DNA of 64,000 bases, from contig OZ253553.1 in assembly GCA_965262715.1 (NCBI GenBank), positions 2,624,001 through 2,688,000 of the forward strand, read 5' to 3'. Origin of the DNA: Bdellovibrionales bacterium. GTDB lineage: Bacteria; Bdellovibrionota; Bdellovibrionia; Bdellovibrionales; JAUICD01. How positions within the stretch are numbered: position 1 is the first letter of the stretch; every line of letters begins with the position of its first letter. Shown here piece by piece: positions 25,859-42,370 of the stretch. The notes below the pieces were generated by a model. The model was not told the DNA's origin. It saw only the letters and a list, made by a program, of their open reading frames with translations, and ran no database searches. The translations under genes and the position numbers were made by a program.

Positions 25859-25935
<77 letters not shown>

Positions 25936-25939
25936 TTTC

Positions 25940-26080
25940 CCTAAAAATAAACCTGCCTCTGGCAGTTTTTGGGCAGTCAGCCTGAAGATTTACATCTTCA
26001 AGAAAATGCTGACTGCCTCAAAAATCCGTTTATTTTTAGGAAGGAGACTCCCTTCGTTTTTTAACATAATGTTAAGGGAA
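25940..26080. repeat. Dispersed hairpin repeat family, copy B
   Basis: Nested inverted repeats CCTAAAAATAAAC/GTTTATTTTTAGG, GGCAGTCAGC/GCTGACTGCC, TGAAGAT/ATCTTCA. Confidence 0.85.
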
Positions 26081-26160
26081 TTGTATTTTGCTGATTTCTA
26101 TAAAATGAACTTGTTTATCTTATTACCACTATATTGCATAAAAGTTTTAAAGACTATGTT

Positions 26161-26224
26161 GGCCTGTCACGCCGGAGGCCCGCCTCGAGAGGCCACGGGA
26201 CTCGAGCCGAAGTCCACTCCGCCA
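26161..26224 (+). pseudogene. Degenerate copy of the tRNA-Asp 3' half (att-like scar) with a 14-bp insertion
   Basis: GGCCTGTCACGCCGGAGGCC identical to the tRNA, then CGCCTCGAGAGGCC inserted, then a decayed T-arm and GTCCACTCCGCCA. Confidence 0.85.
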
Positions 26225-26278
26225 TACACAGAAACTCAAAGCTTTTGATGTTTTAGTATAACATATTAAAATTGTTGC

Positions 26279-26515
26279 AGTTTATGATTATGTCAAAAGC
26301 TCGTAGTCCTCGGATAATTGCTTTTGCAATTATCTTGCGGAAGAACTCGCCCATTTGGCATAATCATTACACCTTTTTCTTTATGATGAACAGAATTAGG
26401 CTTGTCAATTTAGGTAAATACTTTACAGATATAGGGATTTATCCGGTAATCATATCAGCGACTAGTGTCAATCGCTCCTTTAGTGATTGTCCCTTTTGGG
26501 ACTGGTCGCTCCTTA
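26279..26515 (+). ncRNA. Candidate structured ncRNA next to the retron RT 3' end
   Basis: Multiple stems whose non-Watson-Crick pairs are G-U on the + strand; upstream TTGATG-16-TAAAAT. Confidence 0.55.
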
Positions 26516-26521
26516 AAATGG

Positions 26522-28294
26522 TTAGTTGATATCATGAAATAATTCGCGATATTGTTCTTTATCTTTGTATTTATTATGTAAACGATCCCAAAGTTCTTTT
26601 TCTATATTTTTTATAAAACATAAATGCCCTTGGATATGAAATTTTTTCTTATTTTCTCCTTCCTCATAATTCCTTAATAATTTTTTTATATAGTTCTTCT
26701 TATTTCTTCCTATAGATATTTTACCTTCAGGGGTAAGATACAAACCTGTTATTTTTCTTTGACCTTTTTTTGACATGTGGACTGTTTTCTTATTGTTAAT
26801 TTGTAAATCAGATGGGTAAGGTATCTCTTTTATAACTTTTTGTACCTCACTTTCCATAATGGACAGTTTATTAGGTTGATCATGAGAAAAAGCAAGATCA
26901 TCAGCATATCTTGTATAGGTTATACCCAAAGAATGACTATATTCTGATATTTTTTCATCAAAAGAATAGAGCAGAATGTTTGATATAATTGGAGAAGTAC
27001 TAGCTCCTATAGGCAATGAAAAATCTTCATTCGTTATTGAGTCATCTTTAAAAGCTATATCACAAATGAATTCAATATATGTATTAAGCTTTTGACATTT
27101 AAGGTTTATATTTTTTAAATATGCAAAAAAATCTTTTCTTTTTATAGAGTTAAAGAAAGATTTAAAATCCAATTTAAGAATGAATTGATTCTTATAATGT
27201 TTTTCTACATTTTTTCTTATATTACTTCCTTTTACATAAGCCATAGCGGACTCATGTATGGGAAATATGTCTTTGTTATCCAGTATTCTCGTTTTTAAGA
27301 CTTTTTGTAATACATCTAATTGTGGTTGTGGCTTTTTATAACATTCAGAGGGATACTTCTTAGAATAAGAATATGAAAAATAGTCTTCATCTGCAAAAAT
27401 TTTCATGTATTTTAATAAAACTAGGTTACTCATTGTTTTGTCAGCGTCAGCAACCTGCTTAAAAATATCTCTATTATGAAATTCGTTTCTTGAAGCTGAA
27501 GGAGAGATTGCAGATAGAGAACAGTCTGCTCTTATCAAACTTAAGAATTTTATTTTATTAAAATCTGGTTCTTCAATTATCAAACCTAAAGATTTTAGTA
27601 TTTTTAAGTGATTACCTAATTTTTCTGTATATCTTTTAAGTTCATTATTTTTATTCAGTTCTTCAATTATTTGTTCTTCAGTCTTCCATGTACAAAGAAT
27701 TTCCAAAAGAGAAAAATATAAACTTGTGGGATTATTTTCTTGCGTCTCTATTCTATAGTCCTTGTCTCTAAAAGAAAAAATCTCTTGAAATATCTTTTCA
27801 TTGTGATTTGTTTTTTCAATATCATAATATATAATCCTGCCCTCAGAAAGACAAGGATCTTTAATAATGGCTCTTTGTATAAATGAGTCTTTATTAAAGT
27901 GTTTCTCATTTAAAATAATCAATAATTTTTTTTTAAGGCTTGGTTCACAAAGGAAGGCTCCAGCTTCAATCATAGCACCACATCCTTCTAAAAAAATAGG
28001 GATAACTGAAGCTAATCTTGCTATATCCATTTCAAAGTCTAATAGGTTATTATAACCACTATTGGTCTCTGTTAAACATGTCTCCCACAAATGTTGTACC
28101 TTTTCTGCGATAATAATTCGTTCATCAGAAAAAATATTTTTAGTTGCTTTCCCACTAACAAAAATATGATTATATTGGTACTCAACATAATCAAGAAACT
28201 TAGACCTCATAGAGTCTTTCTTATTAGCTCCACACAAAAAGGCCATATTGGGAAGTCTGCCTAAGATATATTTTTTTTGGTCCATGACATCCAT
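26522..28294 (-). CDS. Retron effector (NDT-like plus wHTH, Ec86/St85 type) fused to a retron reverse transcriptase
   Basis: N-terminus: FLCGA, NLLDFE..IA, IFLEGCGAMIEAGAF, SFI. C-terminus: AMAY..G.NI.KNVEKH (region X), LKLDFKSFF, LPIGASTSP..SN, YTRYADDL, KITGL (region Y). Confidence 0.9.
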   Translation of the reverse strand: MDVMDQKKYILGRLPNMAFLCGANKKDSMRSKFLDYVEYQYNHIFVSGKATKNIFSDERIIIAEKVQHLWETCLTETNSGYNNLLDFEMDIARLASVIPIFLEGCGAMIEAGAFLCEPSLKKKLLIILNEKHFNKDSFIQRAIIKDPCLSEGRIIYYDIEKTNHNEKIFQEIFSFRDKDYRIETQENNPTSLYFSLLEILCTWKTEEQIIEELNKNNELKRYTEKLGNHLKILKSLGLIIEEPDFNKIKFLSLIRADCSLSAISPSASRNEFHNRDIFKQVADADKTMSNLVLLKYMKIFADEDYFSYSYSKKYPSECYKKPQPQLDVLQKVLKTRILDNKDIFPIHESAMAYVKGSNIRKNVEKHYKNQFILKLDFKSFFNSIKRKDFFAYLKNINLKCQKLNTYIEFICDIAFKDDSITNEDFSLPIGASTSPIISNILLYSFDEKISEYSHSLGITYTRYADDLAFSHDQPNKLSIMESEVQKVIKEIPYPSDLQINNKKTVHMSKKGQRKITGLYLTPEGKISIGRNKKNYIKKLLRNYEEGENKKKFHIQGHLCFIKNIEKELWDRLHNKYKDKEQYRELFHDIN

Positions 28295-28877
28295 AGATTG
28301 ATTTTTTATTAATATTAAATATAAATCCCCTTCTTAATAAAGAAGGGGAAATATATGTAAACATAGCTGTATTTTAAAACTGTTTGCAGATATATTCTAC
28401 CAACATAGTAAAGGATATTATCATTATATAATGGTAGTCAAATAAATTATTTCCCTCTATTTTATATAAGTGTTGCTGCCTCCGTTACAGAGACTAACAG
28501 TATATATGATACTATTTAGTGAATGGTTTCTTATCCAATAAAAACCTTTTAGAGGACTTATCTTGTTTGTTTCTATTATTTCCTGAAATATTGTTTTCCA
28601 GATTTTTAAGTAAAAATAAATGGTCGCTGGCTTATTAAAGTTATTTTCATATTTTTAAAACAATCTCAAAATAAGATCAAGGATGTCACATTTGCGTCGA
28701 TCAAATGTCATTTACACTGATTTTGTCTAGCAAAGGAGTTATGAGGGGTTTGGCCGCATAAATTTGATTAAATTCTCAGGCTTTTCTATAATTAAATAGT
28801 AATTTAGAGTTTATAAATATTGATAGGTAGTTTACAAATAAAGACATAAGGGGAATAAGAAAACACTTATTTATAGA

Positions 28878-28979
28878 CAAATAGGATAGTTAAACATGAT
28901 AAAAGATCATATTGCCAGCTCACCTGATATAGAGGAGGATGATTTTAGAAGAACTCCATTTGATGAAAAAATAACTTAA
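28878..28979 (+). pseudogene. C-terminal remnant of a type I restriction subunit HsdR (EcoEI_R_C-like)
   Basis: QIG*LNMIKDHIASSPDIEEDDFRRTPFDEK resembles Q..WL.MIKDHIASS..I..DDF...PF...G, with W replaced by TAG. Confidence 0.6.
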
Positions 28980-29016
28980 GAGAATTATAAATAAAAGTAA
29001 ATGAAGAGTTGTTTAT

Positions 29017-30399
29017 ATGACAGATAAAAAAATTAAAGATCTCATTTTAACTGGTGAAGGATATCATATAGAGTTTAAACAGGCTTTAGATAAATCTCTT
29101 ATTGATGAAGCTTGTGCTTTTGCTAACTCATCTGGTGGAGATATTCTAGTTGGAGTCACTGATGATGGAATAGTAAAAGGCATTGATATAGACAATCGCC
29201 TTCGCTCTCAAATTCAAGATGTATTGAACCAATTGCAACCAAAATTAGATATTACTATTGAGTCTACAGAAAATCTCATTATTATTCATGTTCCTGAAGG
29301 CCAAGAAAAACCTTATGGGTGTTCAAGAGGTTTTTTTATGAGAGTTGGAGCAAATTCTCAGAAAATGACGAGGAACGAAATCATTGCTTTTTTTAAAAAA
29401 GAGGGACGTGTTAATTTTGAAGAGTTAATTAATGAAAAATCCAGTTTTGAAAAGGACTTTGATTCTAAAGCTTTTAAATATTTTTTAAAGCTTTCAGGTA
29501 TTACTTCGACCATTAAAAAAGAAACTCTTTTACAAAATCTGGATTGTCTAACATCTGATAAAAAACTTACAAACTTAGGGGTTTTGTTTTTTGCTAAAGA
29601 TATAGATCTTATTATGAATTATGCCCTTGTGGATTGTATTTTATTCAGAGGAGCAGATAAAGTTAAGATTTTAGATAGAAAGCAGTACAAAGGAAACCTC
29701 ATTGAAAATATTGAAAGTGCTTTGGCTTTTGTTCAAAGGCACACAAATACCGAATATGTGATTACAGGTAAACCTCGCAGAGAAGAAATTCCTGATTATC
29801 CTGAAACTGCTTTGCGAGAAACCATTGTCAATGCTGTTTGCCACAGAGATTATTTTGAGAAACGGTGTCATGTTGTTATAGAGATTTTTTCTGATAGGGT
29901 GGAGATTTATAACCCAGGTGGATTACCAAGTGGACTTAATCCAAAAGATTTTGGAACGAAAAGTGTTCCGCGAAATCTTTTTATTGCTTCAATGCTACAT
30001 AGAGTAAATTATATAGAGCAAGCAGGAACAGGGATTGGCCGTATCAAAGAGGCACTTGCAAATCATAAAAAGAAGGTGGGACTGGATATTCAGTATAGTG
30101 ATGACAGTATGTTTTATAAGGTTATTTTTAAGAAAGGTAAATTGGTAGAAACTACCCAGAAAACTACCCAGAAAACTACCCAGAAAACTACCCAGAAAAT
30201 TTTAGATCTAATTGATAAAAATCCTTATATTACAAGGAGAGAATTATCAGAGCAAATTAAAAATATCACTCCTGATGGTGTCAAATATCATATAGAGCAA
30301 TTAAAGAAACAAGGGGTTTTAAAAAGAATTGGGGCTGATAAAGGTGGTTATTGGAAAGTGATTAAAAACAATCAGAAAACTTCAAAAATCAAAAATTAA
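29017..30399 (+). CDS. AlbA_2 (Schlafen-like) + HATPase_c_4 + HTH protein
   Basis: GEGYHIEFK, ACAFANSSGG.ILVGV.DDG, ALRE.IVNA.CHRDY, NPGGL, EQAGTGI. Confidence 0.9.
   Translation: MTDKKIKDLILTGEGYHIEFKQALDKSLIDEACAFANSSGGDILVGVTDDGIVKGIDIDNRLRSQIQDVLNQLQPKLDITIESTENLIIIHVPEGQEKPYGCSRGFFMRVGANSQKMTRNEIIAFFKKEGRVNFEELINEKSSFEKDFDSKAFKYFLKLSGITSTIKKETLLQNLDCLTSDKKLTNLGVLFFAKDIDLIMNYALVDCILFRGADKVKILDRKQYKGNLIENIESALAFVQRHTNTEYVITGKPRREEIPDYPETALRETIVNAVCHRDYFEKRCHVVIEIFSDRVEIYNPGGLPSGLNPKDFGTKSVPRNLFIASMLHRVNYIEQAGTGIGRIKEALANHKKKVGLDIQYSDDSMFYKVIFKKGKLVETTQKTTQKTTQKTTQKILDLIDKNPYITRRELSEQIKNITPDGVKYHIEQLKKQGVLKRIGADKGGYWKVIKNNQKTSKIKN
30149..30199 (+). repeat. 12-bp tandem repeat x4 encoding TTQK
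   Basis: (AAACTACCCAGA)4. Confidence 0.9.
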
Positions 30400-31476: not shown

Positions 31477-32586
31477 TTAACCTTTGATGCAGACCACTTG
31501 TTTTAAGGTGTGTAAGATTTCAACAAGGTCTTTTTGGGCTTCCATCACTTTGTCAATATCCTTATAGGCTTTAGGTGATTCATCTAAAACACCTTTATCT
31601 TTTCTGCACTCTACTCCTTTTGTGGCTCTGCGATGTTCTTCAAGAGAGATCAATTGCTTAGCTTTAGTTCGGGACATCACTCTGCCTGCGCCATGAGAGC
31701 AGCTATGAAAACTCTCTTCGTTTCCAAGCCCTCTGACAATATAGGATTTAGCTCCCATACTGCCAGGTATAATTCCTAAATCGCCTACCCTCGCTCGAAC
31801 AGCACCTTTCCTAGTTATATATACATTTTGATCATAATGATGTTCAATTTCTACATAGTTGTGATGACAGTTGATAGCTTGCTTTTCTACTTTCATAAAT
31901 GGAAAATCTTTCAATAACACTTCTAAAATATGTTTCATCATGATCTCTCGATTGATACGAGCAAACTCTTGTGCCCAGCTAACAGCTATCATATATTCTT
32001 CAAAATGTTCTGTTCCTTGAGGAAAATATGCGAGGTCTTTATCAGGAAGTTGAATCATATACTTTTCCATATCTTTTTTAGCTAAACTGATAAAGTAATT
32101 TCCGATTCTATTGCCTAATCCTCTAGATCCACTATGAAGCATCACCCAAAGACTTTCAGATTCATCAAGGCAAAGCTCTATAAAGTGATTTCCTCCACCG
32201 AGAGTTCCTAATTGAACCTCTCGCTTTTTTGCAGCAGCCAAAGGCTTTTCTTCAGTAAGTTTTTGTAACCCTTCCAGCTCCTTAGCCTCCTTTTTTTGCA
32301 ATAACATCATCCATCTATTAAATTCAATTTGCAATTTTTTGAGTTCTTTCATAACCATTTCAACGCCAGATATAACTCGAACATGTTTAAAATCCTCAAA
32401 GGTTTGAAACTCAAAACCTCTCTTGACATCCACTAAGATAAAGTCCATATTTCTATCTCTAGGATATAAACTTGTAATAACGTCTTTAACAAAATTAGAC
32501 TTGTCACCTGCTGTCTGATTTACAACTAGAAGATGAAGCATCTCAATGAGATTGCAAAAAACTTCATTTATACAACTTTCTCCCAT
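31477..32586 (-). pseudogene. Chimeric ORF: degenerate FtsK/SpoIIIE-like fragment fused to the 3' two-thirds of rtcB
   Basis: HLLVVNQTAGDKSNF..ITSL..FILVDVKRGFEF (decayed Walker A). 31477-32244 aligns to 37324-38091. Lacks the RtcB N-terminal MPDVH and VGVDIGCG motifs. Confidence 0.8.
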
Positions 32587-32869: not shown

Positions 32870-35317
32870 ATGAGGGTACCAATGGGCATTGACCTAGCAA
32901 AGATACGATTTGACCAGTTTTTCGTCGAATGGAAAGCGTCACAATCTGCCATAATTAACGAGAGTGACACTCGCTTTCAGATGATTGATCGTATGTTAAT
33001 TGAGGTTATGGAATGGAAGCACTTAGATATACGCACAGAAAGGCATAGCTCATCTGGCTATGCTGATTATCTTTTATCTCGAGACAATAGGAGTTATTTA
33101 GTCATCGAAGCAAAAAAGAAAGATAACCTTCTCATCGATACAAGAAATCCCAATGTGGCTCACTACAAGGTGGGAGGATCTGCGCTTAAAAGTGCGGAAG
33201 AAGGCATAAAACAAGCTCGTAAATATTGTGTGGACGTTGGGGTCTCTTTTGCTGCTCTTACCACAGGAATTGAGTGGATATTCTTTACCGCTATTAGAAC
33301 AGATGGGCGACCTCCAGCAGAGGGGAAAGCTATTGTATTTCCGAATCTACAGTCCATAAATAAAAATTTTGCCAAGTTCTATGACCTCCTTTCTAAGTCT
33401 GGTTGTGATAAGGAACTAATAAGAGTTCGGCTACAAGAAGCTGAGGGGCTAGAGATAATATCTGAAGAGGAACTGTACTCAATCCAAGATCCTCAGAAAG
33501 CTCGATTCATGAAAAAATCTCAGATCGCACAAGACCTGAACCGAGTGTTTGACGAATTCTTCGGCACAATATCAGGAAATAATGATACAGAAATGCTCTC
33601 TAAATGTTTTGTTGAGACGAAGGAAAGCCGTGAAGCAGATACAACATTAGACAAAATTACACGAAAGTTGACGAACGATATTCAAGTCGTTAATAGCCGA
33701 GGAGTAGCTCTTGCAAAACGCATTGAAGCAGCAGTTGAATCTCGTAGAGGGGAATTTGTTCTCGTTATCGGAAATAAAGGAGCAGGTAAATCGACATTTA
33801 TTGATCGATTCTTCAAATTAGTACTTGAAAATAGTTTACGAAAACAATGTTTAGTTGTTAAAGTTGATCTAACGAGTGCTTCTAGCAGTCTTGATACACT
33901 AGATAGTTGGCTTACGAACTGTCTGAAAAAAGTTCTAGAACGGGAATTGTTTGATTCTTCTGCACCAAAATATGAAGAGCTACAAGGAATATTTTGGAAA
34001 GATTATCAAAGGTGGAAAGTGGGAGAACACAAGTTTCTTTATAAGACAAATCGAAATGAATTCAAAATTAAATTTGGAGAATACATATATAACTTAGCGA
34101 AAGAACAACCTAAAAAATACATAATTGAATTGTTGAGACATTCCATTAAGTCGCGACAGCTTTTGCCTTGCTTAATATTTGATAACACAGACCATTACCA
34201 ACAAACATATCAAGAACATGTGTTTCAATATGCACAATCAATCTTCCAAGAAGTTCTTTCATTCGTTATTTGCCCAATTACAGATCGAACCATTTGGCAG
34301 CTTTCAAAACAAGGACCATTACAGAGCTATCGAACTACGCAGTTTTACCTTCCAGTCCCTTCGACCAAGGAGGTTTTGCATAAAAGAATAAACTTTATCA
34401 AACAAAAAATAGAAGGTAAGTCTACAAGCGGAGAGTACTTCTCACAAAAAGGGATTCGCTTAAATCTTTCTGACATAAAAGGGTTTGCTCTCTGTCTTGA
34501 AGAGATTTTTATCAACACAGAGTATTTAGGGAAAATCGTCGGTTGGTTGTCTAATCATGATATTCGCAGAGGATTAAGAATTTCACAGGATATAATCACA
34601 TCACCAATCTTGAATATAGAGGAGCTTCTAAAGCTATACATTTTTAAAGGAAAATCGATACAAAAACAATCAATCAAAGAAAGAAAAATACGTCAAGCCT
34701 TAATACTAGGAAACTACAATACCTTTATAAAGAAAAATAGTAGTTTTATTTTAAATGTGTTTCAGGTAATTGGTACTGATATTACCACTCCTATGGCAAC
34801 ACTATCAATACTTCAGTTGTTAATGGATAAAGAAGTGTCAGCAAGCTCACCAATAGAGCCATACATGACAATTGATAAAATTGTGAATTATTGTGAACCA
34901 ATGGGTATTAGTCGCTCAGCCACAATTAAGCATTTAAAAGAGCTTTTGGAGTATAGGCTAATAGAACCGTATGACCCAACAGATTCAGATATATATATGG
35001 AGCAGAGGGTTAGAATTACATATGCAGGGCGTATTCACATGGATTTTGCTCTTAAGGATGAAACTTACTTTATACAAATGGCTCTTGCTACACAGATTCG
35101 ATCATCAGATATTGCGGTTCAAGGTCGAGGTATATTTTACAGTGGTGATAAAATGACTCGAAGTGACTGGCTTGAAATTGCTTGTCTTTTTGCAAACTAT
35201 TGTGATCAGCAAGATAGGCTTTTCGTGAATATACCAACTGTAGATTCATACTTAGGACAAAAAGAGCTTCGCAACCAATTTAGGCAACGTTGGATCAATA
35301 AAGATGAAATACTCTGA
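32870..35317 (+). CDS. HsdR-N-like PD-(D/E)XK nuclease fused to a P-loop ATPase, putative defence protein
   Basis: NESDTR..ID, GYADYLL..LVIEAKK, QARKYC, LTTG.EW; GNKGAGKST; LIFDNTD. Confidence 0.8.
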   Translation: MRVPMGIDLAKIRFDQFFVEWKASQSAIINESDTRFQMIDRMLIEVMEWKHLDIRTERHSSSGYADYLLSRDNRSYLVIEAKKKDNLLIDTRNPNVAHYKVGGSALKSAEEGIKQARKYCVDVGVSFAALTTGIEWIFFTAIRTDGRPPAEGKAIVFPNLQSINKNFAKFYDLLSKSGCDKELIRVRLQEAEGLEIISEEELYSIQDPQKARFMKKSQIAQDLNRVFDEFFGTISGNNDTEMLSKCFVETKESREADTTLDKITRKLTNDIQVVNSRGVALAKRIEAAVESRRGEFVLVIGNKGAGKSTFIDRFFKLVLENSLRKQCLVVKVDLTSASSSLDTLDSWLTNCLKKVLERELFDSSAPKYEELQGIFWKDYQRWKVGEHKFLYKTNRNEFKIKFGEYIYNLAKEQPKKYIIELLRHSIKSRQLLPCLIFDNTDHYQQTYQEHVFQYAQSIFQEVLSFVICPITDRTIWQLSKQGPLQSYRTTQFYLPVPSTKEVLHKRINFIKQKIEGKSTSGEYFSQKGIRLNLSDIKGFALCLEEIFINTEYLGKIVGWLSNHDIRRGLRISQDIITSPILNIEELLKLYIFKGKSIQKQSIKERKIRQALILGNYNTFIKKNSSFILNVFQVIGTDITTPMATLSILQLLMDKEVSASSPIEPYMTIDKIVNYCEPMGISRSATIKHLKELLEYRLIEPYDPTDSDIYMEQRVRITYAGRIHMDFALKDETYFIQMALATQIRSSDIAVQGRGIFYSGDKMTRSDWLEIACLFANYCDQQDRLFVNIPTVDSYLGQKELRNQFRQRWINKDEIL

Positions 35318-35491: not shown

Positions 35492-36964
35492 TTGAAACAA
35501 AATCATATCCAAAACCATTTCAATATCAGGCTGTTGAAATTTTTACTGAATCAAGGTAGAGAATGCGAATGGATAGAGTTCAAAGAAAATAACTTTGACC
35601 CAGTTATTATTGGCAAGACACTTTCGGCTCTTTCCAACTCCGCATTTCTTCATGATGAAGCCTATGGGTATTTGATCTATGGCATCAAAAATGAATCCCT
35701 TGAAATTATTGGTACCAGCTATAAACCCAAAATACATAAGGTTGGCAATCAAGAAGTTGAAAATTGGCTAGCTACTCAATTAGATCCTCGGATTGATTTC
35801 CGTATTATTGAGTTTGATACCTCTGAAGGTAGAGTAGTATTCTTTAGAGTAGATGCGACAAGGGTGAGGCCCGTTTCATTCAAAGGAAATGAGTTCATAC
35901 GTATCGGGTCATACACAAAGAGACTGAAAGAACACCCTGAAATGGAAAGAAAAATCTGGGGGAAGGCATCAAGAGAATCTTTTGAAACTCAGAAATCTGA
36001 AGTTAACCTTACAGATGATCAAATCCTCAGCCTCCTTAATTATACGACATACTTCGATCTTACAGAACAACCCTTGCCCTCCAATAAAGAGTCCCTTCTT
36101 ACAAAATTAGAAGAGGAGAAGTTAATTGTCTCAGAAAAAAACGGAACTAAAGCAATTACAAACCTAGGAGCAATCCTATTTGCTAAAGACTTGAAACATT
36201 TTACCTATCTTCAAAGAAAAGCTGTTAGAGTGATTATATATAAGGGAAAAAATCGCTTAATTACTATAAAAGAGCTAGAAGAGAGAAAAGGCTATGCAGC
36301 AGGTTTTGAAGAGCTTGTTCATTATATTAATGACCAACTTCCTACTCATGAACAAATAGAAAAAACCTTGCGTAAGAAGATTCATGTCTTTCCAACAATA
36401 GCTATAAGAGAATTAGTAGCTAACATGCTGATCCATCAAGATTTCGACATTTCTGGTACTGGTCCAATGGTAGAAATTTTTTCAGATAGAATAGAGGTTT
36501 CTAACCCTGGTAAGCCTTTGATCAATACTCTACGACTTCTTGATCACAATCCTCGCTCAAGAAACGAAAAATTAGCTTATTTTATGAGAAGAATTAAAGT
36601 ATGTGAAGAAAGAGGGAGTGGGATTGATAAGGTTGTAGCTGCAACCGAGACAAACAATTTGCCAGCACCTAATTTCATTTATGAGGATCAGTATTTTAAA
36701 ACTATCCTTTATGGTCCTAAATCTCTTAAACAAATGACCAAACGAGATAAAGTACGAACAACTTATTTACATAGTTGTTTAAAATATATCTCTAGCGAGG
36801 TCATGACCAATGAGTCTCTGAGGAGTCGGTTGGGCATAAAGAAGGCAAATTATCCCTTGGCCTCAAGAATTATTAAGGAGACTCTCAAAGAAGAATTGAT
36901 TAAACCCAGTGATCCGGATAATAAAGCACCAAAGCATTCGAGTTACATTCCTTTCTGGGCTTAG
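35492..36964 (+). CDS. AlbA_2 (Schlafen-like) + HATPase_c_4 protein
   Basis: ECEWIEFKEN, SALSNSA, AIRELVANMLIHQDF, SNPG, CEERGSGIDK, YIPFWA. Confidence 0.9.
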   Translation: MKQNHIQNHFNIRLLKFLLNQGRECEWIEFKENNFDPVIIGKTLSALSNSAFLHDEAYGYLIYGIKNESLEIIGTSYKPKIHKVGNQEVENWLATQLDPRIDFRIIEFDTSEGRVVFFRVDATRVRPVSFKGNEFIRIGSYTKRLKEHPEMERKIWGKASRESFETQKSEVNLTDDQILSLLNYTTYFDLTEQPLPSNKESLLTKLEEEKLIVSEKNGTKAITNLGAILFAKDLKHFTYLQRKAVRVIIYKGKNRLITIKELEERKGYAAGFEELVHYINDQLPTHEQIEKTLRKKIHVFPTIAIRELVANMLIHQDFDISGTGPMVEIFSDRIEVSNPGKPLINTLRLLDHNPRSRNEKLAYFMRRIKVCEERGSGIDKVVAATETNNLPAPNFIYEDQYFKTILYGPKSLKQMTKRDKVRTTYLHSCLKYISSEVMTNESLRSRLGIKKANYPLASRIIKETLKEELIKPSDPDNKAPKHSSYIPFWA

Positions 36965-37323: not shown

Positions 37324-38520
37324 TTAACCTTTAACACACACAATTTGCTTTAAAGTATATAAGATTTCAACAAGGTCTTTTTGGGCTTCCATCACTTTGT
37401 CAATATCCTTATAGGCTTTAGGTGATTCATCTAAAACACCTTTATCTTTTCTGCACTCTACTCCTTTTGTGGCTCTGCGATGTTCTTCAAGAGAGATCAA
37501 TTGCTTAGCTTTAGTTCGGGACATCACTCTGCCTGCGCCATGAGAGCAGCTATGAAAACTCTCTTCGTTTCCAAGCCCTCTGACAATATAGGATTTAGCT
37601 CCCATACTGCCAGGTATAATTCCTAAATCGCCTACCCTCGCTCGAACAGCACCTTTCCTAGTTATATATACATTTTGATCATAATGATGTTCAATTTCTA
37701 CATAGTTGTGATGACAGTTGATAGCTTGCTTTTCTACTTTCATAAATGGAAAATCTTTCAATAACACTTCTAAAATATGTTTCATCATGATCTCTCGATT
37801 GATGCGAGCAAACTCTTGTGCCCAGTGGACAGCTATCATGTACTCTTTAAAATGCTCTGTCCCTTGAGGAAAATATGCGAGATCTTTATCAGGAAGTTGA
37901 ATCATATACTTTTCCATATCTTTTTTAGCTAAACTGATAAAGTAGTTTCCGATTCTATTGCCTAATCCTCGAGATCCACTATGAAGCATCACCCAAAGAC
38001 TGTCAGGTTCATCAAGACAAAGTTCAATAAAGTGATTTCCTCCACCAAGAGTTCCTAATTGAACTTCACGCCTTTTTGCAGCAGCCAAAGGATGTCTTTC
38101 AATAATACCATTGTAAATTTCTGCAAGTCCTGCCCACTGAGCTTCCACAGTTTTTGGCAGCTTGTTATGAGCAGATTGCCCCACAGGAACAACTGATTCG
38201 ATAGAAGATCGGATATTGGATAAAGAGTCAGGTAAATCTTTCGCTAGAAGATTGGTCTTTACAGCCATCATACCACAGCCAATATCTACACCTACAGCAG
38301 ATGGGATAACAGCTCTCATTGTAGGGATCACACTACCGATTGTAGCACCTTTTCCGAGATGAACATCTGGCATAGCAGCAATCCATTTATAAATAAAAGG
38401 AAGTCCTGCAATATTCTGAAGTTGCTTTTTAGCTTCCTGTTCAAATGGCACACCTCTAGTCCAAGACTTAATCATCTTTTTTGAACTACTGGTTAATATT
38501 TCATAGTTGGGTTTTTTCAT
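37324..38520 (-). CDS. rtcB: RNA ligase RtcB
   Basis: MPDVHLGKG, VGVDIGCG, GTLGGGNHF, HSGSRG, HHNY, PGSMG, HGAGR, terminal KG. Confidence 0.97.
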   Translation of the reverse strand: MKKPNYEILTSSSKKMIKSWTRGVPFEQEAKKQLQNIAGLPFIYKWIAAMPDVHLGKGATIGSVIPTMRAVIPSAVGVDIGCGMMAVKTNLLAKDLPDSLSNIRSSIESVVPVGQSAHNKLPKTVEAQWAGLAEIYNGIIERHPLAAAKRREVQLGTLGGGNHFIELCLDEPDSLWVMLHSGSRGLGNRIGNYFISLAKKDMEKYMIQLPDKDLAYFPQGTEHFKEYMIAVHWAQEFARINREIMMKHILEVLLKDFPFMKVEKQAINCHHNYVEIEHHYDQNVYITRKGAVRARVGDLGIIPGSMGAKSYIVRGLGNEESFHSCSHGAGRVMSRTKAKQLISLEEHRRATKGVECRKDKGVLDESPKAYKDIDKVMEAQKDLVEILYTLKQIVCVKG

Positions 38521-40560: not shown

Positions 40561-41105
40561 TTATTTATTTAATCGAAGTGACTTAGGATTGCCTGTAAAT
40601 ACTTTATAATTTTTCACTAATTTTGAGAAATCATAATCATCTGTGAGTATATTTATTCCCTTACCTTTAATCAAATTAGATACATAGGCATCATTAAAAT
40701 CACTTCTGCGAGAATCACACAGTACTTGATCAAATGACATCTTACTCATTTCATCATCGAGGCATTTGACTTGCTTTAATATTTTTCTTTTACTGTTTGT
40801 TCAATAATTTTAAAGGTTTCTGAAAAAGCCTGTGAAGGTCTATAATCACTCTTGTATTTTTTTATGTGAACATTATTGAAACGACAATCTATTCTTAAAT
40901 ATCTATTTATAAATTCAGACAAAATAAGGCTTGTAGTGTAGAGTGTTGAATCGGCTTTAAGTAATTTATTATAAAAGGAGCTATATTTTTTTATAGTACT
41001 TCTTTTATAATTTCCAATCGAGCAATAAAGAAATAACCAAATATTTGTGTCCAAAATATAGTGTTCTGATTTTGAAGGCGTATGTGTTTGTATATCAATG
41101 ATCAT
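40561..41105 (-). pseudogene. PIN-domain (VapC-like) nuclease split by a 1-nt frameshift
   Basis: ILDTNIW, ILSEFINRY in one frame; DFNDAY, ILTDDYDF in another. Adding one A to GAAAAAT near 40785 restores EKILKQVKCLDD. Confidence 0.8.
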
Positions 41106-41520
41106 TGCCTAACTCTTCATCAATACTTTTTTCAACTTCTTCTGGATTTTCAAAATATTTTTTTGCAACGCTTATAACTCTTTTTAAAATTTCCATATCT
41201 GTTGGCTCAAGATCAAGAATTTCAAGTTTTTCATTAAGCTGATCACTTGTATATTTCTTATATAATTGACCTATAGCTGCATTTAAAAAAGCCGTAGTTA
41301 TAAGTTGAATGTTTTTAAAACTAACTTGTACGGAGATTTCTTTATCTAAAGCTTTTTCAATTCTCTGGTATAGACTATCACCTTCTTCAGTTGATATGGC
41401 TGAACTTTCTCCTATACATTCATAGACAGAGATAAGTAATTTTTTATTGTTCATATAATCTCCTTTAAAATAAACTTTCTTGTGATTCTTCATTTGAAAG
41501 AATATAAGAGTTTTTATCAT
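41095..41520 (-). CDS. STAS-like (DUF4325-type) protein; probable start MNNKK at about 41454
   Basis: AISTEEGD..Y..I, VSFKNIQLITTAFLNAAIGQLY; RBS AAGGAG. Confidence 0.85.
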   Translation of the reverse strand: MIKTLIFFQMKNHKKVYFKGDYMNNKKLLISVYECIGESSAISTEEGDSLYQRIEKALDKEISVQVSFKNIQLITTAFLNAAIGQLYKKYTSDQLNEKLEILDLEPTDMEILKRVISVAKKYFENPEEVEKSIDEELGNDH

Positions 41521-42370
41521 TTACATTAAACTCTATATTAACAATTGTGCCATCAAAATAGTTAGCAAACAAATTTTTATAAGATCCTGATTGGCTATTG
41601 TCCCAATAACCATCTCCTGAAATAATTTGAACCCTTCCTTTGTTTAGTTTTATAAATGAAAGCAGAGTACTAAGACCCATACCTCCAGGTATTTGATAAC
41701 TACGAGTAGTATTTCCCTCTTGGATAGCCCACTCAATAGCCTCAAAGGAGGAAATCTTTGATTGTCTATGTCTACTATAGTGTGACACATTTTTTTGGAT
41801 TGTAGAACCCAAGTTAACAATTGAAAAATCTACCTTACCTTTCTTAGGATAAAATTGGCCACAACTAAAGATATTTTTTGTATTACCGTGAGTTTGCGCA
41901 TTCATAAAAACTTCTAACATATTTTCTGTAACTTTCTTCTTCAAAAGAGGGGACATTTTAGGAAGATCGTGTATAGAAAATAATTTATCAGAGAGATATT
42001 TTAAGAAAACTTTGTGATCATCTTTTCTAAACTTTTTGTAGGGAATAGTCGTTCCCCAAATATCAGAAACATACCATCCTCCAAAATTGCTTAAAAAAGA
42101 ATTTCTAGAGAGAATCGACTCTATATTAAGAGGTAATTTTGAGACAGCTACTGAGTTTATAGCATTTTGTAGTTTTGTTATAATGGCTCCCAATACAGCA
42201 CTTAGATTTGCTTCAAACCAAATACAATCAGAAAAATCAATATCAATCTCATCAAGCATCAAATTTTTTGTCTTTGAATAAAGATCTAGTAGTTGTTCAT
42301 AACCTAAAAAGTTATTTTCAACTCTGTAGTCAAATTTATATGTATAATTCATCTGTTTATTCCCTACCAA
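41465..42370 (-). CDS. STAS-like + GHKL (anti-sigma-kinase-like) ATPase
   Basis: IDFS...WFEAN; EVFMNAQTH (N box), NLGSTI, GNTT, PGGMGL, GTIVNIEF. Confidence 0.85.
   Translation of the reverse strand: MVGNKQMNYTYKFDYRVENNFLGYEQLLDLYSKTKNLMLDEIDIDFSDCIWFEANLSAVLGAIITKLQNAINSVAVSKLPLNIESILSRNSFLSNFGGWYVSDIWGTTIPYKKFRKDDHKVFLKYLSDKLFSIHDLPKMSPLLKKKVTENMLEVFMNAQTHGNTKNIFSCGQFYPKKGKVDFSIVNLGSTIQKNVSHYSRHRQSKISSFEAIEWAIQEGNTTRSYQIPGGMGLSTLLSFIKLNKGRVQIISGDGYWDNSQSGSYKNLFANYFDGTIVNIEFNVNDKNSYILSNEESQESLF

Follow-up and report, generated by a model that had tools for sequence, protein, structure and literature searches.

A single-gene RcaT-reverse transcriptase fusion of Bdellovibrionales, probably derived from type II-A1 retrons, with a short structured RNA candidate upstream

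The window, by which we mean the whole stretch of 64,000 nucleotides of Bdellovibrionales DNA analyzed here, carries on its minus strand (26522..28294) one unbroken ORF of 590 aa in which an RcaT effector, composed of an NDT-like domain and a winged-helix domain (NDT-wHTH), is joined to the N-terminal side of a retron reverse transcriptase (RT). A preliminary description had presented this gene as a single-polypeptide retron that keeps the catalytic Glu of its effector; profile searches and the alignment of homologs bear this out, and the motifs quoted there are all found in the translation. PADLOC NDT_II-A models match aa 4-253 (E 3e-31 to 2e-32), in a language-model atlas aa 1-260 fall among STM3845 effector clusters (score 0.91), and the score against the NCBIfam STM3845 model NF038232 is 96.8, marginally below the cut-off of 100. 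The best PADLOC model for the C-terminal half is RT_II-A (aa 300-579, E 7e-79), and the NCBIfam St85 RT model NF038233 is matched with 248 bits, exceeding its cut-off of 235. Ec86 and St85 had both been offered as comparators. The RT belongs with the St85 family, whereas Ec86 is the more distant RT (PDB matches of E 7e-24 vs 3e-43 for Ec78), even though the effector is homologous to that of Ec86 in a profile search (PDB 7v9x_C, E 5e-8).

If the two halves had been joined by an assembly artefact or a one-off read-through, other assemblies and other genomes should not contain the fused gene. Three runs of one sample, which may be the source sample, gave Logan contigs that reproduce 26020-29100 without any difference. 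In a second study, one contig is identical over 26434-29100 save for a 1-nt deletion at 27125, which falls within the RT and distant from the effector/RT junction. There is thus no stop or frameshift at the junction in these contigs, and since separate runs and studies reproduce the gene, the fusion is not an assembly error. The full-length homologs that the preliminary description proposed to look for also exist. A protein search that gave 225 matches out of 8000 scored candidates contained ten at 56-68% identity over 97-99% of the query; L094 and P0124 (32%) bring the intact fused homologs to twelve, at 32-68% identity, and together with the contig matches these rule out both artefact and read-through.

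The NDT-like effector domain (aa ~7-185; 27740..28276, minus), delimited by PADLOC, the atlas score and the homolog alignment, is followed by a predicted winged-helix DNA-binding domain (aa ~186-257; 27524..27739, minus) that matches, by alignment, the C-terminal domain found in split effectors and has a mean identity of 65% among fused homologs. F19, E88 and E110 are invariant in all 13 intact fused proteins, the window protein included, and correspond, by motif and spacing and without use of the Sen2 sequence, to the Sen2 effector triad F28/E85/E107 (preprint 10.64898/2026.10.13.758329). Judging from its family, the NDT domain would deplete NAD+.

Between the halves lies a variable junction (aa 258-288; 27431..27523, minus), in which the homolog alignment has no invariant position among 31 and the spacing between the conserved flanking motifs ranges from 17 to 37 aa. 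It occupies the position that the final helices of the effector and the N-terminus of the RT would otherwise take, and nothing conserved in the alignment of fused proteins corresponds to the conserved C-terminal helices seen in split effectors. Fused proteins total 552-608 aa vs 603-637 aa summed for 15 split pairs, and the window protein is 30-50 aa shorter than II-A1 systems. In the Sen2 complex the C-terminal helices of the effector touch the RT N-terminus, which makes a fusion at this point geometrically natural; these last helices serve both in RT binding and in forming the toxic tetramer, and tetramers are needed for toxicity (available portions of 10.64898/2026.10.13.758329). The same complex is already 1:1:1:1, so the forced 1:1 stoichiometry proposed as a novelty of the fusion is not one.

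The RT half (aa ~289-586; 26537..27430, minus) is a clade-1 retron RT by PADLOC, NCBIfam and PDB matches, with region X at N362-H366, D376, YADD at 463-466 and region Y at 515-517. The catalytic aspartates D376, D465 and D466 and the steric-gate Phe F380 are invariant (20-21 of 20-21 clade members), and the RNA-binding thumb is conserved to the same degree as the palm. Column comparison and PDB alignment point to a remodeled fingers hairpin (aa 305-322; 27329..27382, minus). Here an Arg five residues ahead of a conserved Pro, present in 118/118 stand-alone relatives and in 11/11 other long or fused RTs, is kept by only 1 of 21 members of the query clade; II-A1 RTs retain it, and the query lineage has lost it. 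By PDB alignment the lost residue is Eco7 R42, which we take, from its motif, to be the Arg known from RT1. That RT1 Arg stacks on the incoming nucleotide (PMC12337344). The residue matching Eco7 Q46 is likewise not conserved in the clade and Y308, the equivalent of Eco7 Y32, is retained; Y32A, R42A and Q46A each reduced Eco7 defense (PMC12673091). K320 is near-invariant in the clade and might replace the lost Arg. In all, 6 of the 39 columns that are at least 90% conserved across the 118 stand-alone relatives are lost in the clade, among them the Pro following the motif-B Gly (0/20).

The named sources of the fused homologs are Bdellovibrionales MAGs. Nine matches were found in 384 genomes of the window's order: 5 intact fusions, 2 ordinary split systems, one copy frameshifted inside the wHTH (L006, read at the DNA level) and one truncated at its 5' end, where the adjoining frame resembles a transposase by eye. 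Broken copies, frameshifted or truncated, are L006, L096 and the pairs P0011/P0269 and P0012/P0138. In a phage collection (32 records matched) and a plasmid collection (126 records matched), no fused form reached 80% coverage of the query, and there was none among the 26 ORF-parsed viral loci of 80. Single-protein scans of genome and metagenome contigs gave no match, and alignment scans recovered relatives. A shorter-protein search for close relatives with separate genes yielded 2 fragments among 176 candidates. Related loci have AbiE, KAP NTPase, TIR/SLATT, GmrSD, type I restriction and ApeA domains as neighbors, with no neighboring gene common to the fused loci.

Fusion of these two genes is seen outside this clade as well, in a family for which we likewise found no published description. 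A second fused RcaT-RT family of 598-684 aa (at least 28 clusters at 90% identity; P0132, P0136, P0144, P0147, P0155 and P0289-P0308) has the same domain order, an insertion of about 30 aa in its RT and, unlike the query clade, the canonical fingers motif in 27/28, so that fusion as such is compatible with a normal RT. A viral contig scan for this family returned distant loci only, at no more than 41% identity, and two further fused proteins, P0145 and P0165, were placed outside both families. In trees built by quick searches with midpoint rooting and duplicate loci left out, the query RT is nested among split II-A loci and the two fused families form separate, well-supported clades for RT and effector alike; a single origin of the fusion was not rejected (AU p 0.72 and 0.55).

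Measured against Ec86, the effector-first arrangement had appeared order-reversed. In our survey the effector gene precedes the RT in 36/36 loci with a separate NDT ORF, out of 84 loci examined outside the clade, and two annotated records show the same arrangement; the order msr-msd, effector, RT is also that given for Sen2, Eco3, Vch2 and Vmi1 in the available portions of PMC11701397. Survey and published order together rule out a reversal of an Ec86-like system, and since the RT groups with St85/Sen2 (II-A1, clade 1) and not with Ec86 (II-A3), the order is ancestral. With split II-A loci arranged in this way, the fusion amounts to a II-A1 operon read in frame, and the module very probably descends, as its sequence shows, from a Sen2/St85-like retron whose neighboring effector and RT genes became joined in frame.

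The window protein shares with II-A1 systems (Sen2/St85, Eco3/Ec73, Vch2, Vmi1) the clade-1 St85-family RT, the NDT-wHTH effector with its triad and the order RNA-effector-RT. It differs in being one ORF where they have separate genes and in its RNA, described below. Separate genes and a canonical RNA are two defining features of the type and both are missing here, for which reason we file the system as a putative variant derived from II-A1. The nearest published precedent is II-A2, in which the wHTH is joined to the RT N-terminus with the NDT upstream; there a frameshift parts the NDT from the wHTH-RT (PMC7736814, as available), whereas proteins of the query type are in frame in 13/13. Eco1/Ec86 (II-A3), whose homologous effector is the basis for expecting NAD+ hydrolysis, has a clade-9 RT more distant than the clade-1 RT here. 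Effector and RT likewise form one polypeptide in types I-C (Eco2/Ec67), VII-A1, XI and XII, but those effectors (Toprim, DUF3800, protease and TIR) are C-terminal, in contrast to the N-terminal NDT-wHTH of the window protein. The RT fusions in the available portions of Mestre 2020 (PMC7736814) are C-terminal only, apart from the frameshifted II-A2, and the full fusion is absent from the types listed there, consistent with the preliminary view that this is not known as a described retron type. Nor did we find a full NDT-wHTH-RT fusion in the literature searched, which had few subscription papers, or any paper there linking retron, Bdellovibrio and reverse transcriptase; the available portions of the review PMC8632793 and of two preprints describe none, and the words 'fused' and 'fusion' are absent from the Sen2 preprint (10.64898/2026.10.13.758329). 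An earlier mention in print is possible.

Directly ahead of the start codon lies a conserved structured RNA candidate of ~88 nt (28319..28406, minus), identified by cross-locus identity and fold z-scores and present in 6/6 fused loci with an intact 5' end. It consists of hairpin 1 (28382..28404, minus), a 25-nt linker, hairpin 2 (28319..28356, minus) and a U-rich tail. The upstream regions of fused loci have ~100 nt in common; the window's candidate is 75-85% identical to that of three other loci (blastn, E 2e-12 to 1e-22), and the fold z-scores are −2.4 to −3.7 in 4/4 loci folded. Across the six loci the linker is 22-25 nt, which is the linker length of canonical loci, hairpin 2 spans 33-45 nt, and 2 of 16 consensus pairs have a compensatory change. 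A sigma-70-like promoter candidate (28412..28441, minus; 9/12 matches) ends 6 nt ahead of the RNA, in a region with 18 sites of promoter type vs 17.5 expected by chance, and comparable boxes can be seen by eye at the equivalent place in relatives. Both hairpins therefore sit between the promoter candidate and the start codon. Hairpin 2, at the msd position, is also terminator-like and passes a terminator scan; an RNA terminating 7 nt past its stem would finish in a paired 5-bp helix. It contains no GATC, which makes Dam sensing of the Sen2 kind unlikely. No RNA dataset carrying the locus is listed among the sequencing runs.

The canonical II-A1 ncRNA has an a1/a2 stem, a branching G, SL1, SL2 and a long msd hairpin, and in eleven hand-picked split loci this layout occupies about 160-190 nt; II-A1 RNAs measure ~150-180 nt, vs ~88 nt here. 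A model built from these eleven recovered 10/10 held-out split loci and 0/6 fused loci, and it had no match in the window's own genome (92.7% complete, 150 of 309 candidates scored). A second model, covering SL2 and the linker, recovered 6/6 held-out canonical loci and again 0/6 fused loci, so that hairpin 1 is likened to msr SL2 only from its location and a visual comparison. A significant 5'/3' (a1/a2) stem was found in 0/6 fused loci with a test that detected 3/12 and 5/14 canonical loci (p<0.05) and whose pattern skipped 15-16 loci; in 8 of 12 scored split loci the best stem ends in TAC followed by G, and the six fused loci have no conserved instance of this branching-G context. Substitutions in hairpin 2 comprise 3 G-U and 0 A-C pairs, vs 4 G-U and 20 A-C in canonical msd hairpins (Fisher p 0.012; strand-symmetric count over 20 canonical hairpins and six related fused loci, the latter contributing three pairs). 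An excess of A-C in canonical msd hairpins is what would be expected if the DNA copy must pair. Hairpin 1 has 5 G-U and 1 A-C. A model of the fused-clade RNA had no match beyond its six training loci, and the sole Rfam match was to tRNA. In several split systems (L051, L057, L058, L069, L078 and L116) effector and RT are about 265-305 nt apart, and since the canonical SL2 pattern upstream of the effector is absent in those checked, their RNA may lie in this interval.

The RNA had earlier been sought downstream of the gene, at 26240-26520. Five such downstream regions have no mutual blastn match, and within that interval 26280-26372 is a copy of a dispersed repeat with 14-nt inverted arms and 10 genomic matches, so this candidate is ruled out and the conserved one lies upstream. 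Directly past the stop codon, 26440-26521 is a single-copy branched hairpin region that is not conserved in relatives and whose plus strand has a site resembling a terminator.

Taken together, we give a probability of about 0.5 to the reading, based on six loci, that this is a one-protein, II-A1-derived anti-phage module that operates without canonical branched msDNA. In this model the NDT domain, a latent NAD+-consuming enzyme by its family, probably dimerises, and the lineage probably ceased making canonical branched msDNA. The RT would hold the ~88-nt RNA with its thumb and palm, which would contact hairpin 1 and the linker; hairpin 2, as RNA, would substitute for the msd DNA hairpin gripped by the winged helix, keeping the tethered NDT inactive. 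The RT would act as a scaffold or would add only a short DNA tail primed by the RNA's own paired 3' end, 2 versions that we weigh about equally. A phage factor disturbing the RNA or the RT would then activate the NDT with no need for effector release, leading to abortive infection; phage defense through NDT activity is what family and neighborhood would predict. A stricter version, a DNA-free retron in which one protein holds a minimal RNA that imitates the end state of the mature RT-msDNA complex, its sensor being an RNA hairpin instead of DNA and perhaps extended by a short self-primed DNA tail, we put forward only tentatively.

In favor of the main reading are the 13 proteins in which the fusion is intact, at identities as low as 32% and with an invariant triad, the loss of the fingers Arg where R42A and Q46A cut Eco7 defense, and the fused loci themselves, which the canonical RNA model does not find and which have no significant stem and a wobble pattern opposite to that of msd; the lost Arg and the wobble pattern are the sequence signs against msDNA production. 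We also count in favor of this reading the canonical-length linker, the defense-type neighbors (AbiE, TIR/SLATT, GmrSD, type I restriction and ApeA) and the mature Eco7 complex, which contains neither SL1 nor the a1/a2 stem (PMC12673091, as available). Against it stand the invariant catalytic aspartates and steric-gate Phe, the possible replacement of Arg by K320, the three pairs and six related loci behind the wobble test, the weakness of the stem test, the failure of the SL2 plus linker model, the terminator-like hairpin 2 and the broken copies in the clade.

An alternative is an ordinary retron in a fused body, making a short msDNA from hairpin 2 with a short or unrecognised a1/a2 stem and with K320 compensating in the fingers. 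Catalytic residues, regions X and Y and Y308 are conserved, the RNA is at the canonical place with a canonical linker length, the stem test has low power, and the second fused family has kept its fingers motif in 27/28. We nevertheless consider this somewhat unlikely, given that neither 5'/3' pairing nor a branching-G context is conserved in the six loci, that the wobble pattern is opposite to that of msd and that the Arg position is variable. It is less likely still that the hairpins are regulatory, as a winged-helix operator, attenuator or terminator, and that the protein works without an RNA of its own or with one from elsewhere. Such a role would suit hairpins between promoter candidate and start codon that canonical models do not recognize, one of which passes a terminator scan, but the G-U-compatible changes in hairpin 1 favor RNA over a DNA operator, the fixed spacing equals that of canonical ncRNAs, the RNA-binding thumb is conserved like the palm, and no canonical RNA was found elsewhere in the genome at the coverage given above. 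A decaying lineage without present function would account for the broken copies and the patchy occurrence (7/384 genomes of the order) but is very improbable in view of 13 intact proteins at 32-68% identity in which the catalytic residues of both domains are invariant while the linker varies freely, and of the preserved RNA structure.

RcaT has been termed the most prevalent retron effector, and the Sen2 model requires msDNA modification, disassembly of the complex and RcaT tetramers (available portions of 10.64898/2026.10.13.758329). Since a covalently attached effector cannot be released and the conserved equivalent of the tetramer helices is missing, the fusion is a direct test of the need for release. 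Provided that the short RNA is not copied, the test extends to the DNA itself, and the system offers a one-gene, ~88-nt scaffold for structural work, with the second fused family and its normal RT as a natural control. Should the DNA-free version hold, this would be the simplest RcaT system, with retron sensing that dispenses with both branched DNA and effector release. The shrunken RNA and the remodeled RT fingers, overlooked in the preliminary description, are to us the more surprising features.

The flanking DNA had been described as a tRNA att-like scar at the head of a defense cluster. A tRNA-Asp (25859..25935, plus) is indeed followed by a degenerate copy of its 3' part (26161..26225, plus), but the two enclose only ~225 nt, so the retron gene lies outside the pair and is not bounded by it; the defense cluster rests on domain content only. 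Between them, 25936-26085 belongs to a dispersed repeat of ~145 nt, with inverted repeats at its ends, that has 334 genomic blastn matches, 283 covering at least half of it and many in tandem arrays, and is thus more common than the repeat at 26280-26372. Two genes with AlbA_2 and RecG C-terminal domains stand on either side of an 815-aa protein that has a P-loop domain and an N-terminus weakly resembling nucleases (29017-30399, 32870-35317 and 35492-36964), a set of possible uncharacterised defense genes without a full PADLOC match. Two RtcB RNA-ligase genes lie at 31477-32586 and 37324-38520, the former a chimera of an FtsK-like fragment and an RtcB C-terminal part near-identical to the latter copy. 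At 40776-42370 is a three-gene minus-strand set with a central STAS-like DUF4325 gene and flanking ORFs without a Pfam match. Four tandem tRNA-like copies stand immediately ahead of a tRNA-Trp at G000:C1:2198524-2198863, and in one of seven related loci scanned (L094, 1304-1380) a convergent tRNA-Met lies just downstream of the fused gene, as the tRNA-Asp does in the window.
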